Shown one piece after another: positions 47,189-52,971 of a DNA stretch of 64,000 nucleotides. Both the position numbers and the translations under genes were made by a program. The notes under the pieces are model-generated. The model was given only the letters and a program-made list of their open reading frames with translations, made no database searches and had not been told where the DNA came from. Each line of letters starts with the position of its first letter. The stretch's first letter is position 1. The stretch lies in assembly GCA_963775465.1 (NCBI GenBank), contig CAVZIW010000006.1:192001-256000 (forward strand), given 5' to 3'. The stretch is from Candidatus Bathyarchaeota archaeon. Its GTDB lineage: Archaea; Thermoproteota; Bathyarchaeia; Bathyarchaeales; Bathycorpusculaceae.

Positions 47189-47396
47189 CTACTACTATAT
47201 ATTATTCTTGTGCTTGCTGGAGAAAAAATGGGCTATACCGACCCAATATTTGTTGGATTCAAAAAGTGAAGTTCCACATCTCTTGATATTTGTTTGAAAA
47301 TTTTTATGATTTTTTGGAAGCCCGAAACTTTTAGGATATTAGAATGTGAATTATAAAAAGTGTTATTTAGCAGTTGGGCATTTCTTCTATTTTTAG

Positions 47397-48326
47397 GTGC
47401 TGCATTTGGGGTTCAAAGACCGAGATATTGTATCAATCGAAGACTTCTCCCAAGCCGAAATCAACCATATTCTCGACATGGCTAAAAAAATGGAACCCAT
47501 CGCTAAAACAGGCTCAGACATGCTTAAGGGTAAAATCCTAGCCACATTATTCTTTGAACCTAGCACTCGTACTCGTCTTAGTTTTGAAACTGCCATGTTA
47601 AAACTCGGAGGCAACTACATCGGATTTGCTGAACCAGATATAACATCTGCTCGCAAAGGCGAAAACTTGGCAGATACCGTGCGTACAGTTGAAAATTACG
47701 CGGACGTAATAACACTTAGGCACAGTTTAGAAGGTTCAGCCAAGTTGGCGGCAGAATTCTCCAAAGTTCCAATTATCAATGCAGGTACAGGCGCCGAGGA
47801 GCATCCAACCCAAGCTTTTATTGACTTGTACACGATGCGCAAGGACAAAGGCGAAATCAATGGATTAAAAGTTGCCCTAGTGGGCGACTTGCGCTACGGC
47901 AGAACCGTACATTCGCTAGCCTATGCGTTAGCGCTCTACAACGTAGAACTCCACCTTGTTTCGCCTGAAGCGTTACGAATGAGAAAAGAAGTACTCCAAA
48001 CCATAAAAAATAAAATCTCCGTAACGGAACACATCAATCTCGATGCTTTGATCTCTCAAATCGATGTTCTCTACATCACTCGTATCCAAAAAGAACGCTT
48101 CCCTGACGCTGCCGAGTATGCTAAGGTCAAAGGCGCTTACAAAGTCGACCTAAAAACGCTGAAAAACGCTAAGAAAAATATGATTATTCTGCACCCGCTG
48201 CCCCGGGTCGACGAAATCGCTGCCGAAGTAGATAGCACACCCCAAGCGCGCTACTTTCAGCAGGTCTGGAATGGCATCGTAGTCCGCATGGCGCTACTTT
48301 CATTGGTTTTGGGCGCGATTAAATAA
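47397..48326 (+). CDS. pyrB: Aspartate carbamoyltransferase catalytic subunit
   Basis: FFEPSTRTRLSF, HPTQ, GDLRYGRTVHS, RIQKER, HPLPR. Confidence 0.97.
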   Translation: MLHLGFKDRDIVSIEDFSQAEINHILDMAKKMEPIAKTGSDMLKGKILATLFFEPSTRTRLSFETAMLKLGGNYIGFAEPDITSARKGENLADTVRTVENYADVITLRHSLEGSAKLAAEFSKVPIINAGTGAEEHPTQAFIDLYTMRKDKGEINGLKVALVGDLRYGRTVHSLAYALALYNVELHLVSPEALRMRKEVLQTIKNKISVTEHINLDALISQIDVLYITRIQKERFPDAAEYAKVKGAYKVDLKTLKNAKKNMIILHPLPRVDEIAAEVDSTPQARYFQQVWNGIVVRMALLSLVLGAIK

Positions 48327-48397: not shown

Positions 48398-50611
48398 CTA
48401 TGTTGAAGAGAAACGGTCAAAGGTTGTCAGGTTACTCATGGAACCGCATGAGGGACATTTATGTAACATTCTATACCAGTTCTTCTTGCAGTTATCGCAA
48501 GAGCTGATCAAGCGACTGTACGTAAAAAATTCTACAATTTGGTTTTCGATCAATCGAAGGGTTAGATCCATGAGGGCTTCGGTCTTATACTCTGCGTTTT
48601 CAAGTTCGATAATGCTTAAGTTTCCGCCGGCATTTAATCCTCTAAATCTCTGTGCTGTCTCCAATACATCTGTCTGAAGCGACAAAAGTTCAGCAGATTT
48701 AAGATGGAATCGTATGGAAGTTGAATAATAGGGTTTCTCTCGAGTTCCAGAGAACTTCACTTTAGCTACTCCGAATCTCTCTATGTCAAGTTGTGCCAAT
48801 CGTTCAGAGGCTTCAGTAGAACCCAAGATCACAGGATAGAGTCGCTTAACATATCTTCTGCCAATTTTTTGTTTGAAAGAGGTAACATTAGCTACAATCT
48901 CTTCAGCAAAAACCCGACTCTCCTCTGAGTTTATGCTTTTTCCTGTAAAGTCTTCAACTGACTCCCGAAATCCAGCTAAATTAACTATTCTAGAGCAGTT
49001 TTCGAGTCTGAAGTAGGTATCACCACCTGTTTTCTGCAAGAGAAACGGCAACGCGTTCTTTCCAAACTGCTTTAACGCATTATTCTTAATTTGCAAAGCT
49101 CTGGCGGAAAGTTCAAACCGCTCCTTGAGTAAATCTTGGAATTTATGCTTATCCTTGTCACATTCAAGAGTAATTCTGGGTAAGTTTATAGTTACTTCGC
49201 CTAAGCATCCCGTTCTAAGCGTATCGGTTTCCCAGTCACCCGTTAAATCAGCAGCCAATTTGACCCCAGAAGCCGAAAACGCCACGTTTTCGCTATTTTT
49301 TAGGTCTAAATTGGCAAAAAAGGGTGTTCCGCTTTGCAGTGCCAACTTGTGAGCTTTCAAAAGAACAGATTTTGCTTCTTTGTTTGAGAGTGCTTCCCCA
49401 TTGATTTTTATGATTAGTTTAGGACTAAGCAACGGCTTGATTGTACTCTCTTCAATGAAAACATCAATAATAAGCGAAGCGAGAAGCAAGCTTTCTTGAG
49501 CAAAATCGTTGTATATTCCGATAGCTTTGCCCTGCGGTCCAACAGCTTCTTTTTCAGCGGTTTGTTTTGGAATTAACAAGTCAAGTCCCAACGTGGTTTC
49601 CGTATGTTGGTTGAGACTTAAAATGAAAAGCCGAAGGGTTTCCTTGATTTTTGACTGCTCATTTCCCCTTATGAAAGGCGCTAAGAACACATTGAAGTAG
49701 TTGAATGTCTGCATTCTATTGGTCTCACTTGCGGTGTGGAGCAGGACATTAAACGCTATGGATAGGGCAGATTTGAGATTGCTAGGTGGACTCATTGATT
49801 GCTGTGTTGGCTTAACAAGAGCTATACCATGCTGGAAAAAAAAGCGAAGGTCGTGAACAACTTCATTGGGCTTTAGAATCCAAGTGCCTAACTCGTCGAT
49901 GTGGATCACTCCTGAAAGATGAGCGTCGGCTATGTCTCGGGGGAAAATATTTAGCAATGTATATTCACCCAGAACCGTTTGCCCCGCTTTGCTAATCGTG
50001 GTAGCGCAGTCTTGATTGGTGTCTTTTGCCTCAATTAATACTGTGACTTCATGAATCGGCATACCAACACGGGTAAGTTTATGGCGATATTCTTCATAAC
50101 CCTTTTCAACCAAAATCGAATTCACAACCTCTCGGATAAGGGAAGCTGTGAGATACTTTGTTTTTGATTTAATAAGACGTTTTTCAGCCTCTTTTGCAGC
50201 TTTCTGCGCCAGTTCTGCAGGAACTTTAGCCTCTTTAATTAAAGCGTTGGCGATCTTGTTTACGTCAAATTCTTCCATCGTTAAATGTGAAGTCCGAACT
50301 AGCATACCCCGCGGTTTAACTGCTTTCTTTTCCACGCGGTCAGCCACATCGAGAACCATCTTGCCTAGGTCAGTTAAACAATACTTTTTTGCTTCAACAT
50401 CTGCTTCAACCAAATCTGCTTTCAACATAAATTTCAAGTGATAAGCAAATCTCCCTGCGTCACGGCTCGGGTTCATTTTCAGCTGGTTCATAAGTTCCGA
50501 GTAAGATAGGGCGCTTTTATCAAAAAGAAGGTTGAGAATTTGCAGTCGTAGGGGTGAAGAAACCGCTTTGAGTACATTAACACCACGCGAACGAGGCTGC
50601 TGCTTAACCAT
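48398..50611 (-). CDS. ArsR-type wHTH + ATP-cone + class III ribonucleotide reductase (NrdD)-like protein, apparently catalytically degenerate
   Basis: N-terminal LKAVSSPLRLQIL..LSYSEL..FAYHLK; ATP cone; ADAHLSGVIHI, TINLPRI, CxxC/CPSCG; no terminal RxxGY. Confidence 0.82.
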   Translation of the reverse strand: MVKQQPRSRGVNVLKAVSSPLRLQILNLLFDKSALSYSELMNQLKMNPSRDAGRFAYHLKFMLKADLVEADVEAKKYCLTDLGKMVLDVADRVEKKAVKPRGMLVRTSHLTMEEFDVNKIANALIKEAKVPAELAQKAAKEAEKRLIKSKTKYLTASLIREVVNSILVEKGYEEYRHKLTRVGMPIHEVTVLIEAKDTNQDCATTISKAGQTVLGEYTLLNIFPRDIADAHLSGVIHIDELGTWILKPNEVVHDLRFFFQHGIALVKPTQQSMSPPSNLKSALSIAFNVLLHTASETNRMQTFNYFNVFLAPFIRGNEQSKIKETLRLFILSLNQHTETTLGLDLLIPKQTAEKEAVGPQGKAIGIYNDFAQESLLLASLIIDVFIEESTIKPLLSPKLIIKINGEALSNKEAKSVLLKAHKLALQSGTPFFANLDLKNSENVAFSASGVKLAADLTGDWETDTLRTGCLGEVTINLPRITLECDKDKHKFQDLLKERFELSARALQIKNNALKQFGKNALPFLLQKTGGDTYFRLENCSRIVNLAGFRESVEDFTGKSINSEESRVFAEEIVANVTSFKQKIGRRYVKRLYPVILGSTEASERLAQLDIERFGVAKVKFSGTREKPYYSTSIRFHLKSAELLSLQTDVLETAQRFRGLNAGGNLSIIELENAEYKTEALMDLTLRLIENQIVEFFTYSRLISSCDNCKKNWYRMLHKCPSCGSMSNLTTFDRFSST

Positions 50612-50712
50612 TGCCTTTTTTCTCTCCCTAACTCACAAATTTGATAGCGCCTACCTATTATTCCACTCGAGAGTTTAAACTTAACTAAAAAATTCTTACA
50701 TGAATTAGATAA

Positions 50713-51774
50713 TCAATCAATGCAAGGTTGCTGTTGACTGATGCAGTGGATAGTACCAAACCCATAAACCAAATCGCTGCATCTGATTCCAACAACTTTA
50801 CGTGAGGGAAAAAGTTCCTGCAATATTGATAACGCTTTTTCATCATTCTCATGGTCAAAAACTGGTACAAGCACTTTGGTGTTTCCAATGTAAAAATTAG
50901 TATAACTTGCCGGCAAACGTTCTTCTTCGTTGATAACAACTTTGGGCATAGGCAACTTAACAATTCGGATTTTTTCGCCATCTTGATCGACCGCTTGACA
51001 AAGGATATCGTAGTTTTCTTTTAGAGTATCATAGTTTATGTCATTTTGATTTTCTTCAAAAGCGCAAACAATTGTTTTTTCGTTTACAAATCTTGCTATG
51101 TCATCGATATGCCCATCTGTGTCATCACCGAAAATACCGCTTTTGAGCCATATGAAGTTGTTAACGCCAAAGTATTCACTTAGAATCTTTTCAATCTGTT
51201 TCTTGTCTAAATTTGGATTGCGATTTTTATTTAGCAGACACTGCTCAGTCGTTAACAGTGTTCCCCTGCCATTTACATCAATTGAGCCACCTTCGAGAAC
51301 CATACCTGGTTTAAAGCATTTTAACGCCAGTTTCTGGTTAATAACTTCCGGTATTTGCTTGTCTTTTAACAGAGTTTCATATTTTTCGCCCCAAGAGTTG
51401 AACTCCCACTGCACCATTGCAAGCTCATGCTTGCTGTTCCTTACGAAGATTGGGCCGTAATCCCTAAACCAAACATCAGCGTAGTCGAAAATATAGAATT
51501 CGACTCTACTCAAATCAATGTTTTCTTCTTTGAAGAGTCTTTCCGCTTTGTCTTTAGCTTTCAGACCAGTAACAAAAAGATTCACCCTTTCACTCAAGTG
51601 GATTTCTTTAACAATCTGTACATAGATTGTTTCAACAAGTTCAACTTTCTCAGGGAAAGTCGTAGGGTCATGGGGCCAAGCGAGCCAGATGGCATCGTGC
51701 TTTTCCCATTCTGCAGGCATGTAAAAACCTTGTTCAAAGCAAGATATTTCGTTATTACTCATCCAGAGCGCCAC
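50713..51774 (-). CDS. aguA: Agmatine deiminase
   Basis: MPAEWE.H, WFRDYGP, LEGGSI, DTDGHIDD, ASYTNF, GTIHCISQQQP. Confidence 0.93.
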   Translation of the reverse strand: MALWMSNNEISCFEQGFYMPAEWEKHDAIWLAWPHDPTTFPEKVELVETIYVQIVKEIHLSERVNLFVTGLKAKDKAERLFKEENIDLSRVEFYIFDYADVWFRDYGPIFVRNSKHELAMVQWEFNSWGEKYETLLKDKQIPEVINQKLALKCFKPGMVLEGGSIDVNGRGTLLTTEQCLLNKNRNPNLDKKQIEKILSEYFGVNNFIWLKSGIFGDDTDGHIDDIARFVNEKTIVCAFEENQNDINYDTLKENYDILCQAVDQDGEKIRIVKLPMPKVVINEEERLPASYTNFYIGNTKVLVPVFDHENDEKALSILQELFPSRKVVGIRCSDLVYGFGTIHCISQQQPCID

Positions 51775-52675
51775 TGTTGGTTTCTAAAAGCTGTTTGTAT
51801 GTGTCGGGGCGTCGATTGCGGAGAAATCCCCATCCTTCTTGAATTCTTTTATTATGCGTTAAGTCAACCGTTACTACCAATACCTCCTCATTTTTAGATC
51901 CGGCTTCCGCGAGGACTTTGCCAAAAGCGTTGCAGATAAAAGAGCCACCCCAAAACTCCAAAATCCCTTCCGAACCAACACGGTTAACTGCGGCGACATG
52001 GACACCGTTTGCTATTGCATGTGCGCGTTGCACCGTTTTCCAAGCATCATGCCAATCCCCATCTTGAGATGTCTGGTCAAAAATATACCCTATGGCAGTG
52101 GGGTAAAACAGGATTTCTGCGCCTTTTAACACGTTAATTCGAGCTGCTTCAGGGAACCATTGGTCATAACAAATAAGAACTCCAATTTTCGCGTATTTTG
52201 TATTGAAAACTCGGTACTTTGACTCGCCTTCCGTGAAGTATTCTTTTTCGTAAAAGTAGGGATCCTGTGGAATGTGAATTTTGCGATAAACACCCAAGAC
52301 TTCGCCGTCAGCATCAATTACAGCGGCTGAATTATGAAACTTGCCGTTTTGGTCTTTTTCAAAGATGGGAACAATTATGACAACGTGATGCTTTTTTGAT
52401 AGCTCTGAGAAAAGTCTTGTAGATTCCCCTGGGATGGTCTCTGCCAACGAAGATACCTTTTGGTTTTCTTTCTGAGGAAAATACCTCGAACGGTAAAGCT
52501 CCTGAAGGCATATTATCTGTGCGCCTCTGCCCGCAGCTTCCTCAATTTTCTTTGCAGTTTTTTGCATATTTTCTGTTATGTTTTCTGAAACGGCGGTTTG
52601 GATAAGTGCAACGGAAACTATCTGGTTGCTTTTTCTGGTATTCTTGAGACTTTGAGTAGGTATGTTCTTGTCCAT
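51755..52675 (-). CDS. aguB: N-carbamoylputrescine amidase (carbon-nitrogen hydrolase)
   Basis: QEL, YRKIHIP, ICYDQWFPEAAR, YPTAIG, RRPDTY; adjacent to aguA. Confidence 0.88.
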   Translation of the reverse strand: MDKNIPTQSLKNTRKSNQIVSVALIQTAVSENITENMQKTAKKIEEAAGRGAQIICLQELYRSRYFPQKENQKVSSLAETIPGESTRLFSELSKKHHVVIIVPIFEKDQNGKFHNSAAVIDADGEVLGVYRKIHIPQDPYFYEKEYFTEGESKYRVFNTKYAKIGVLICYDQWFPEAARINVLKGAEILFYPTAIGYIFDQTSQDGDWHDAWKTVQRAHAIANGVHVAAVNRVGSEGILEFWGGSFICNAFGKVLAEAGSKNEEVLVVTVDLTHNKRIQEGWGFLRNRRPDTYKQLLETNSGALDE

Positions 52676-52971
52676 CCTTGTCGGTTCAACTATTCTATGT
52701 GCTGTTGATATTAACTTTTTTGAAAAAAAGAAAAACAAGCAAGGTAAAAACCAGCAACTATTTTCAGCAGCAAGAAGTAAAACAGCCACTTAAAAAAAGC
52801 CTTGTTCTTAAGTAACTTTTTTCAAGGAATACCGACAACATTAAAAAGATTTTATTCACCTGCTTAAGAAAATAACATCTTGGTTAAATGCGGTCTTTTC
52901 GTTTTGCACAAAGAAACTATTTATTAAGTTAGACTGTGGTCAATAGTTAGTTTACTAAGGGGCTATTTAGA

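Follow-up and report, generated by a model that had tools for sequence, protein, structure and literature searches.

Can a ribonucleotide reductase (RNR) lose its chemistry and be kept as a gene switch? This question is raised by one gene in a 64,000-nucleotide stretch of DNA (the window) from a Candidatus Bathyarchaeota archaeon, assembly GCA_963775465.1, contig CAVZIW010000006.1, positions 192,001 to 256,000. The gene encodes a protein in which a winged helix-turn-helix (wHTH) domain and an ATP-cone precede a body that resembles NrdD, the class III RNR, and that lacks the residues for radical catalysis. An earlier note, made from the sequence alone, had proposed that such a 'dead' NrdD is either a regulator that reads nucleotide pools or a regulatory partner of a true NrdD. 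Based on the analysis described here we favour, with moderate confidence, a pseudoenzyme transcription regulator that senses ATP/dATP and works like NrdR. The features of the gene, in window coordinates, are as follows.

48398..50611, minus strand: whole open reading frame (ORF), 737 amino acids (aa), ATG to TAG, encoding wHTH, ATP-cone, catalytically dead NrdD-like body and Zn site
50321..50575, minus strand: ArsR-like wHTH, aa 13-97 (PF24038, PF01022, structure model, conserved columns, non-synonymous divergence)
50078..50302, minus strand: ATP-cone, aa 104-178, with the hairpin V105-R106-T107-S108 (PF03477, column audit)
48512..50008, minus strand: NrdD-like barrel body, aa 202-700, without radical residues (PF13597, Foldseek, column audit)
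49862..49864, minus strand: E250, at the conserved P-x-C cysteine position of true NrdDs (alignments)
49265..49273, minus strand: A447-S448-G449, at the position of the finger-loop C-C-R with the thiyl-radical Cys (alignments)
48446..48499, minus strand: Zn site C705-x2-C708 ... C719-x2-C722, invariant in 74/74 family members
48398..48445, minus strand: 15-residue stub GSMSNLTTFDRFSST and stop codon, replacing the glycyl-radical loop (alignments, conserved ending)

Loss of the radical residues and the short C-terminus

The catalytic positions were read from alignments anchored on the genome's own true NrdD, which carries GPYC, MCCRLR and RVVGY. In the focal protein the cysteine of P-Y-C is replaced by E250 (ILKPNEVVHD), the finger-loop C-C-R by A447-S448-G449 (AFSASG), and R-V-V-G-Y by R733-F-S-S-T737, after which the stop codon follows. 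All four Zn cysteines (C705, C708, C719 and C722) are kept. A phmmer alignment with T4 NrdD agreed at T4 Cys79 and Cys290, with NCCLVDL facing NEVVHDL and MGCRSF facing a gap plus AADL. These readings uphold what the earlier note had read from the letters, namely that no glycyl-radical loop stands at the C-terminus and no cysteine at the P-x-C site or in the finger loop.

The short end was found to be a conserved feature and not an error, since 119 of 120 close homologues (72-99% identity; 119/120 with all four Pfam domains) end alike, exactly 15 residues past the last CxxC, and none of the 120 has R-x-x-G-Y/F in its last 40 residues. A local frameshift or truncation, which the note had named as the finding that would overturn its reading, was ruled out by this shared ending, and no intact R-x-x-G-Y terminus was seen in the orthologues. 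There is also no room for a hidden glycyl-radical domain, because the convergent pyrB gene ends only 71 nucleotides (nt) from the stop codon. As far as sequence allows, the loss of catalysis is established.

Domain architecture

Pfam placed the DUF7347 wHTH (PF24038) at aa 13-88 with 32.7 bits (cut-off 27.6) and HTH_5/ArsR (PF01022) at aa 19-69 with 28.6 bits (cut-off 22). Directly after the wHTH, the ATP-cone (PF03477) was matched at aa 104-175 (30.6 bits, cut-off 25.8), and NRDD (PF13597) followed at aa 202-732 with 202.5 bits. The NRDD match ran from position 9 to 537 of the 562 profile positions and so ended short of the glycyl-radical loop. The protein scored below the NrdD equivalog cut-off of TIGR02487 (231.4 against 326.35) and below the cut-offs of seven further NrdD equivalog models in NCBIfam. 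It was likewise below the cut-off of the NCBIfam ArsR/SmtB subfamily NF033788 (30 against 55), and the NrdR model TIGR00244 was not among the 12 NCBIfam families that matched it at E up to 1.

An AlphaFold2 model from the 74-sequence family alignment (pLDDT 89.3, pTM 0.80) has helices and strands at aa 7-97, the wHTH region. When this model was compared with the PDB using Foldseek, ranks 1-36 were all class III RNRs, the best being that of S. thermophilus (9d3x, E 1.7e-26), followed by those of T. maritima, P. copri and T4. The order of winged helix, ATP-cone, NrdD body and Zn site given in the earlier note was therefore borne out by Pfam and the model together. Its assignment of the cone to the archaeal NrdD type also stood, the VRTS hairpin being present as in the adjacent true archaeal NrdDs of other loci. 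The putative recognition helix holds a family-wide G53-x-F55-x-Y57-H58-L59 motif, in which G53, F55, Y57, H58 and L59 are invariant or nearly so; the same is true of V105, R106, S108, E113, F115 and I120 of the cone hairpin. A complex prediction with two wHTH+cone heads (aa 1-190) scored 0.01, which is uninformative either way. One RNA-library run gave a single 235-nt contig that matched 49766-49999 without mismatches at a depth of about 2, which is too little for a claim of transcription.

A family of inactivated NrdD-like proteins

A scan of 1.84 billion cluster representatives gave 1,656 matches at E up to 1e-3 and 312 at 1e-30, and the 97 proteins of 560-820 aa among the best 150 matches were aligned. 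With a hidden Markov model built on the N-terminal 100 residues of the focal protein and of its close homologues, a wHTH was called in 78 of the 97. The P-x-C Cys is present in none of these 78 and the finger-loop Cys in two; the Gly is present in 13, followed by Tyr/Phe in two of them. All three radical residues together were found in no wHTH representative, and 63 had none of the three. The 19 rows without a wHTH included five with all three residues, which are ordinary NrdDs.

The 74-member wHTH family was further compared with 18 true NrdDs at the 119 columns in which the latter are conserved at 90% or more. In this family 31 of the columns were kept (in at least 80% of members), 41 were lost (in fewer than 20%) and 47 were intermediate. 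Those kept are the cone/linker columns, 11 out of 11, together with the four Zn cysteines and a number of scaffold positions (H231, G234, N476, P478, G547, E550, R604, D609, Y629 and G662-G663). Lost were the N-A-N motif of the N-x-N flap, a gap in 73/74 members, the second His of I-H-I-H, the finger C-R, and the A-R-G-x-Q, P-A-E, N-S-x-H and T-G-Y motifs. According to passages in a study of P. copri NrdD, the N-x-N flap couples the cone to the substrate and to the glycyl-radical domain in that enzyme (PMC11226230).

A FastTree tree of 106 rows over all columns placed all 74 wHTH rows in one split with support 100. The tree was repeated on the core columns because the wHTH columns could bias the grouping. 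In this core-only tree of 93 rows, from which 13 rows missed by the linker pattern were absent, all 65 remaining wHTH rows again fell in one split, with support 99. Both trees were made without bootstrap and several long branches were flagged. Judged from these trees, the wHTH proteins are one clade with one origin.

Additionally, NrdD-like proteins were observed that have two ATP-cones in tandem but lack a wHTH (P0194, P0197, P0199, P0210 and P0238, and further P0244, P0249, P0250, P0255 and P0258). These dead double-cone proteins arose independently, since they lie outside the wHTH clade and among the true NrdDs on the tree.

Conservation by domain

Domain identities and conserved columns were taken from the 74-sequence family alignment. 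Among 66 distant members the ATP-cone had a mean identity to the focal protein of 57%, the wHTH 40% and the NrdD-like core 27%, and the share of columns conserved at 90% or more was 32%, 13% and 3%, respectively. Against eight close orthologue loci the non-synonymous divergence (dN) was 0.02-0.04 for the wHTH, 0.04-0.07 for the cone and 0.16-0.20 for the core. The wHTH, on the conservation of which the earlier note had made its reading depend, was thus the slowest-evolving part among close relatives. The synonymous divergence (dS) was about 1 to saturated against the closest loci, so that only the dN ranks and an upper-bound argument were used. All parts are under purifying selection, because dN is far below dS in every domain. 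In these alignments the most constrained modules are the putative DNA-binding wHTH and the putative nucleotide-binding cone, and the pattern of constraint so read is the opposite of that of an enzyme.

Distribution and annotation

Within the class, 102 of 151 sampled genomes matched the focal protein at 349 bits or more. Nearly all of these matches begin within the first 30 residues of the query, with a few exceptions that are truncated at contig ends or begin further on (G067, G111 and G130). Adjacent true NrdDs reached at most 267 bits in the same search, and the families f18 (27 genomes) and f15 had matches at the NrdD level only. Within the phylum, 188 of 301 sampled genomes matched the distant member P0188 at E up to 1e-40. 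This search matched all 43 genomes of family f32 and none of the genomes searched in f33 (0/13), f41 (0/20), f47 (0/10) and f49 (0/10).

A signature peptide of the recognition helix gave at least 595 matching stretches in species-representative genomes. The best 79 of these at least 595, which serve as the focal (close) clade, have 56-84% identity and are nearly all titled Bathyarchaeia or Bathyarchaeota; a few of the 79 are labelled Nitrososphaerota, 'uncultured archaeon' or Methanocella metagenome-assembled genome (MAG). NCBI labels of the cluster members include Jordarchaeia/Freyarchaeota, Atabeyarchaeum (Asgard) and Nitrososphaerales. The architecture is therefore conserved across Bathyarchaeia and beyond the class. 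Some orthologues are named 'ArsR family transcriptional regulator' by NCBI, and other family members 'anaerobic ribonucleoside-triphosphate reductase'.

Near-identical orthologues were also found in the Methanocella-labelled MAG (L068) and in an Ignavibacteria-labelled record (P0067), both of which are probably mis-binned Bathyarchaeia contigs. In two genomes the orthologue is present as two overlapping ORFs (G095 C3 909623-911801; G032 C4 69465-71671), which could be a frameshift or a real split.

Gene neighbourhood

In the window the gene is convergent with a pyrB gene, as the earlier note had placed it.

47397..48326, plus strand: pyrB (aspartate carbamoyltransferase), convergent neighbour (TIGR00670 394.6, cut-off 237)

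This neighbour was found to be conserved: pyrB is convergent to the focal gene in 74 of the 79 close-clade loci, the other five having contig ends nearby, and it lies near the gene in 15 of 31 further families. Chance adjacency to pyrB was tried as an explanation and ruled out by this recurrence in the close clade and in other families.

Twelve deeper-branching Bathyarchaeia loci had been picked for a second nearby match and are thus a biased choice. In all twelve a canonical NrdD gene (P-F-C, R-(I/V)-T-G-Y) immediately follows the wHTH gene on the same strand, and one such tandem NrdD, tested on TIGR02487, scored 520.5 (cut-off 326). The tandem true NrdDs share the VRTS cone hairpin with the dead copy, and in six of the twelve loci pyrB is convergent just beyond the tandem nrdD. 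The simplest history would be an ancestral order of dead nrdD, nrdD and convergent pyrB, of which the middle gene was lost in the focal clade.

A different RNR was found in the five closed genomes of family f32. In all five the wHTH protein is the sole PF13597 match, NrdG is absent above the cut-off, and the sole RNR is a class II NrdJ (TIGR02504, 735 bits, cut-off 400), encoded about 200 nt downstream of the wHTH gene on the same strand. In each of these loci (L135-L139) a small Zn-ribbon-like ORF (CGxCG...CPxCG) was seen to end just upstream of the wHTH gene.

The selection bias was removed by taking the best-scoring genome from each of the 31 further families. Directly after the gene an RNR was found in four of the 31, as NrdD (L142 and L144), class I/II (L146) or NrdD with NrdG (L167), and overall RNR adjacency was found in at least 13 of 41 families. 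Pfam assignment of the two neighbours on each side showed pyrI in eight loci. Carbamoyltransferase genes were seen at L159 and L161, genes of the amino-acid-kinase family with the size of a UMP kinase at L158 and L160, and a dCTP deaminase gene at L170. By our own tally about 21 of the 31 sampled loci have a nucleotide-metabolism neighbour.

Other features of the neighbourhood were observed as well. On the minus strand at 50713-52789, agmatine deiminase-like and N-carbamoylputrescine amidase-like genes overlap by 20 nt. They form a putrescine-synthesis pair, both genes scoring under the equivalog cut-offs, and the pair lies upstream of the wHTH gene in 15-16 of the 79 close-clade loci. The focal-clade pyrB has no adjacent pyrI, and pyrB and pyrI are divergent in several other families. 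One contig (L053) carries two inverted copies of a block of Nop56, wHTH gene and pyrB, the result of an inverted duplication or else of faulty assembly. A NAC-domain gene recurs beside the wHTH gene in L157, L159, L161, L166, L168, L170 and L148, in most cases together with a small TGT_C2-PUA gene. These genes make up another conserved neighbourhood, one with no relation to nucleotide metabolism.

The true RNR genes of the focal genome

On contig 10 of the focal genome (G000; 2.42 Mb, 15 contigs, 92% complete) NrdD is matched a second time, at 651.8 bits far more strongly than by the focal protein. This second match belongs to an nrdR-nrdD-nrdG operon (L001, 698-3961), the products of which all exceeded their cut-offs: NrdR with 150.5 on TIGR00244 (124.65), NrdD with 1077.8 on NF006126 (548) and 564.1 on TIGR02487, and NrdG with 186.6 on TIGR02495 (131.15). 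An intact nrdD, the presence of which elsewhere in the genome the earlier note had left open, is thus found together with nrdG and nrdR. The one NrdG of the genome lies beside this true NrdD on contig 10, in agreement with the note's statement that no activase adjoins the focal gene. The focal protein is 23% identical to the true NrdD over 684 aligned positions. The class I/II RNR barrel (PF02867) was not found in this 92%-complete genome.

The contig 10 operon is a bacterial-type nrdR-nrdD-nrdG in an archaeon, and passages in one paper describe NrdR as rare in archaea (PMC9110341). Upstream of nrdR (L001 600-680), ATATATGCG...TAGTGT and ACACTACGCATATAT form an inverted pair. By their letters these look like two NrdR boxes, one with a 7-nt insert.

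Candidate promoter and operator motifs

Alignment of 77 upstream regions revealed a conserved block ahead of the focal gene.

50648..50692, minus strand: conserved promoter block TTAGTTAAGTTTAAACTCT-N9-AATAATAGGTA (alignment of 77 upstream regions)

This 45-nt block, in which a TATA-like TTTAAA lies inside the palindrome AGTTTAAACT, may be a candidate auto-operator. It is single in the genome, with a position weight matrix (PWM) score of 49.6 vs 16.3 for the next best site. In five deep loci from at least two Bathyarchaeia families (L030, L032, L037, L038 and L039) the true-nrdD promoters share ACTACAG-N4-5-TTTTATACAG-N6-TCTAAAA, a motif that extends well beyond a TATA box. The candidate motifs in the nrdD and nrdJ intergenic regions are TACAG/TTTATACAG and GATC-rich.

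In the two regulatory gaps of the five f32 loci GATC occurs 38 times in 2,067 nt vs 181 times in 42,938 nt, which is 4.4-fold, but the five are relatives of one another, and clusters of GATC may arise for other reasons. The repeats have the consensus aaAa.tGATCaaAAa and lie upstream of both the wHTH gene and nrdJ. An exact 8-12-mer common to all five f32 intergenic regions was not found. As a separate observation, the pyrB upstream regions of 69 loci (47189-47396 in the window) hold a conserved AAGTGTTATTTAG...CAGTTG block.

Proposed mechanism

The protein descends from an archaeal class III NrdD, and some deep-branching lineages keep the tandem order of the two genes. All radical chemistry and most of the motifs for substrate contact have gone from the copy. 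Retained are the NrdD fold, the Zn site and, most of all, the ATP-cone at the N-terminus, and an ArsR-like winged helix was gained ahead of the cone. If the protein is a regulator of the NrdR kind, its NrdD body would form the usual dimer and act as a chassis. The cones would bind ATP or dATP, and their nucleotide-dependent pairing or unpairing would reposition the two attached winged helices, which in turn would switch operator binding on or off. The outcome would be a tuned transcription of the RNR genes of whichever class is present, and probably also of pyrB/pyrI. The focal genome itself is without the ancestral tandem nrdD, and its nrdR-nrdD-nrdG operon lies elsewhere.

The movement of the cones is proposed by analogy with solved class III enzymes, in which dATP causes the two cones to pair and ATP undoes the pairing, and with the cones of S. 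thermophilus NrdD. In passages of the work on that enzyme, these are described as adopting different conformations with ATP vs dATP and as dimerising on dATP binding (PMC12662201). For the focal protein we infer the DNA binding, the nucleotide bound and the target genes. A more far-reaching version, that a whole RNR has turned into an allosteric transcription factor which is the archaeal counterpart of NrdR across Thermoproteota and Asgard and sets the expression of RNR and pyrBI, is put forward tentatively, and we give it somewhat less than an even chance.

Several findings weigh against the proposed regulator. The focal genome already has an NrdR beside its nrdDG. RNR adjacency is not general (4/31 in the unbiased sample, at least 13/41 families) and was seen in only one of the 79 close-clade loci, where nrdR-nrdD-nrdG is nearby. 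No operator common to the promoter of the gene and another promoter of the focal genome was found in a PWM scan, the nrdD motif of the deep lineages is absent from G000 (best score 19.5 vs about 50 for the training sites), and no 9-mer is common to the promoters of the gene and of pyrB in five or more of 66 loci. In the cone hairpin V105-R106 stands where PcNrdD has Lys7-Arg8, and the ligand could differ from ATP/dATP because Val replaces Lys7. The cone segment alone, searched against PDB sequences, gave no solved ATP-cone and only chance-level peptidase matches. Two rows without a detectable wHTH (P0178 and P0229) nest inside the wHTH clade in both trees. The double-cone NrdD-like proteins are also without the catalytic Cys and Gly, and many are without the C-terminal Zn domain; since such dead relatives exist without a helix-turn-helix (HTH), a dead body with a cone may have a DNA-independent role. 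Finally, DNA binding, nucleotide binding and the regulon are inferred for all members of the family.

Alternative explanations

The wHTH and cone could also form a DNA-bound nucleotide sensor with another job, for example coupling dNTP/ATP levels to replication initiation or chromatin. Both modules are conserved, many loci have no RNR neighbour, the GATC-rich clusters at the f32 loci can mark things other than operators, and neither the motif nor the 9-mer searches found a target in the focal genome. However, a nucleotide-metabolism gene is near in about 21 of the 31 sampled families, and RNR genes of two classes lie directly downstream in at least 13 of 41. Replication genes do not recur; one locus has an MCM-like gene with an integrase. 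We therefore regard another job as unlikely, although it is the strongest of the alternatives.

A reading close to the second proposal of the earlier note is that the protein serves a real RNR as a partner without catalysis of its own or as an allosteric subunit. It would pair with an active NrdD or titrate its activase or effectors, and the wHTH would be secondary. Its tandem position with a true nrdD in several lineages would fit this, as would the origin of the dead copy from the same NrdD type with the VRTS cone in common, the Zn site and many structural columns that are kept, and the existence of HTH-less double-cone dead relatives. But all five closed f32 genomes lack NrdD and NrdG above the cut-off, and the neighbour of the gene there is NrdJ, which, being of class II, differs in quaternary structure. 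In 78 of the 79 focal-clade loci the true NrdD is not linked to the gene, and the wHTH, as the slowest-evolving part among close relatives, would be hard to explain if secondary. Of the note's two proposals the regulator is thus the one that stood and is favoured, because 5/5 f32 genomes have nrdJ and neither NrdD nor NrdG; the partner, which these genomes speak against, appears improbable.

It is still less probable that the protein is a cryptic enzyme whose NrdD-like barrel would act on nucleotides by some other reaction that needs no radical. The fold is intact, the model is confident, and N476, P478, G547, E550, R604, D609, Y629 and G662-G663 form near-invariant core columns. The core is nevertheless the least conserved part, with only 3% of its columns at 90% or more, and the active-site and substrate-flap motifs are lost or variable. 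There are no family-wide replacements at the lost positions, the P-x-C site having T, E or S.

A decaying pseudogene or assembly error, as the missing catalytic residues, the short C-terminus and the split copies in G095 and G032 might suggest, is already refuted by conservation, unless one artefact is common to all genomes, as the frame is open with the same length in 119/120 close homologues, the gene is retained across a phylum and dN is far below dS in all domains.

Comparison with known systems

NrdR is a repressor specific to RNR genes that occurs in bacteria and a few archaea, and its function was first proposed from the same kind of gene linkage as described here. Like NrdR, the regulator that we favour has an ATP-cone beside a module for DNA binding, and both are encoded in linkage with RNR genes of different classes, which in the focal family are nrdD and nrdJ; the focal genome itself lacks such linkage. 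NrdR has about 150 aa with an N-terminal Zn ribbon, whereas the focal protein has 737 aa, a winged helix and a whole RNR body, and outside the cone the two are analogous and not homologous. In the passages on its sensing, NrdR is described as responding to ATP/dATP through its cone (PMC9110341).

With NrdD (PF13597, TIGR02487; solved for T4, T. maritima, P. copri and S. thermophilus) the focal protein shares the fold, the ATP-cone and the Zn site. It differs in that the Gly, the thiyl Cys, the second Cys and the NxN flap are all absent, with 41/119 columns lost, and the family differs in its extra N-terminal wHTH and in its occurrence in genomes without NrdG. The N-terminal 97 residues resemble the ArsR/SmtB and DUF7347 regulators (PF01022 and PF24038), but classical ArsR/SmtB members have about 100 aa and sense metals, whereas here the sensor would be the cone with the RNR body. 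The double-cone NrdD-like proteins (P0194, P0197, P0210, P0244 and others) have in common with it a VRTS-type cone, an NrdD-like body and the absence of Cys and Gly, and carry a second cone in place of the wHTH. In the trigger enzymes PutA, BirA and NadR a metabolic-enzyme fold is joined to a DNA-binding domain, and a metabolite controls transcription. These are still catalysts, in contrast to the focal protein, which has lost its catalytic residues.

In the literature searched, with RNRdb and paper supplements outside the search, neither a wHTH/ATP-cone/NrdD fusion nor an NrdD pseudoenzyme was found described, and no case of an RNR used as an enzyme-derived regulator was found. The matched passages of an RNR phylogeny preprint (10.1101/2022.04.23.489257) do not contain 'helix-turn-helix', and its supplements could list such sequences.

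The gene in this window thus probably encodes an undescribed nucleotide-sensing regulator of DNA-precursor genes, which is often labelled as an active enzyme in databases. In carriers whose only real RNR is class II, the label 'anaerobic ribonucleoside-triphosphate reductase' misleads, since it points to an anaerobic RNR that is not there. With a conserved phylum-wide candidate, some carriers of which have closed genomes, the transcriptional control of the supply of deoxynucleoside triphosphates (dNTPs) in archaea becomes a testable question. If the proposed role is true, the family would be a clear example of how the allosteric machinery of an essential enzyme is reused as a gene switch after catalysis has been lost.

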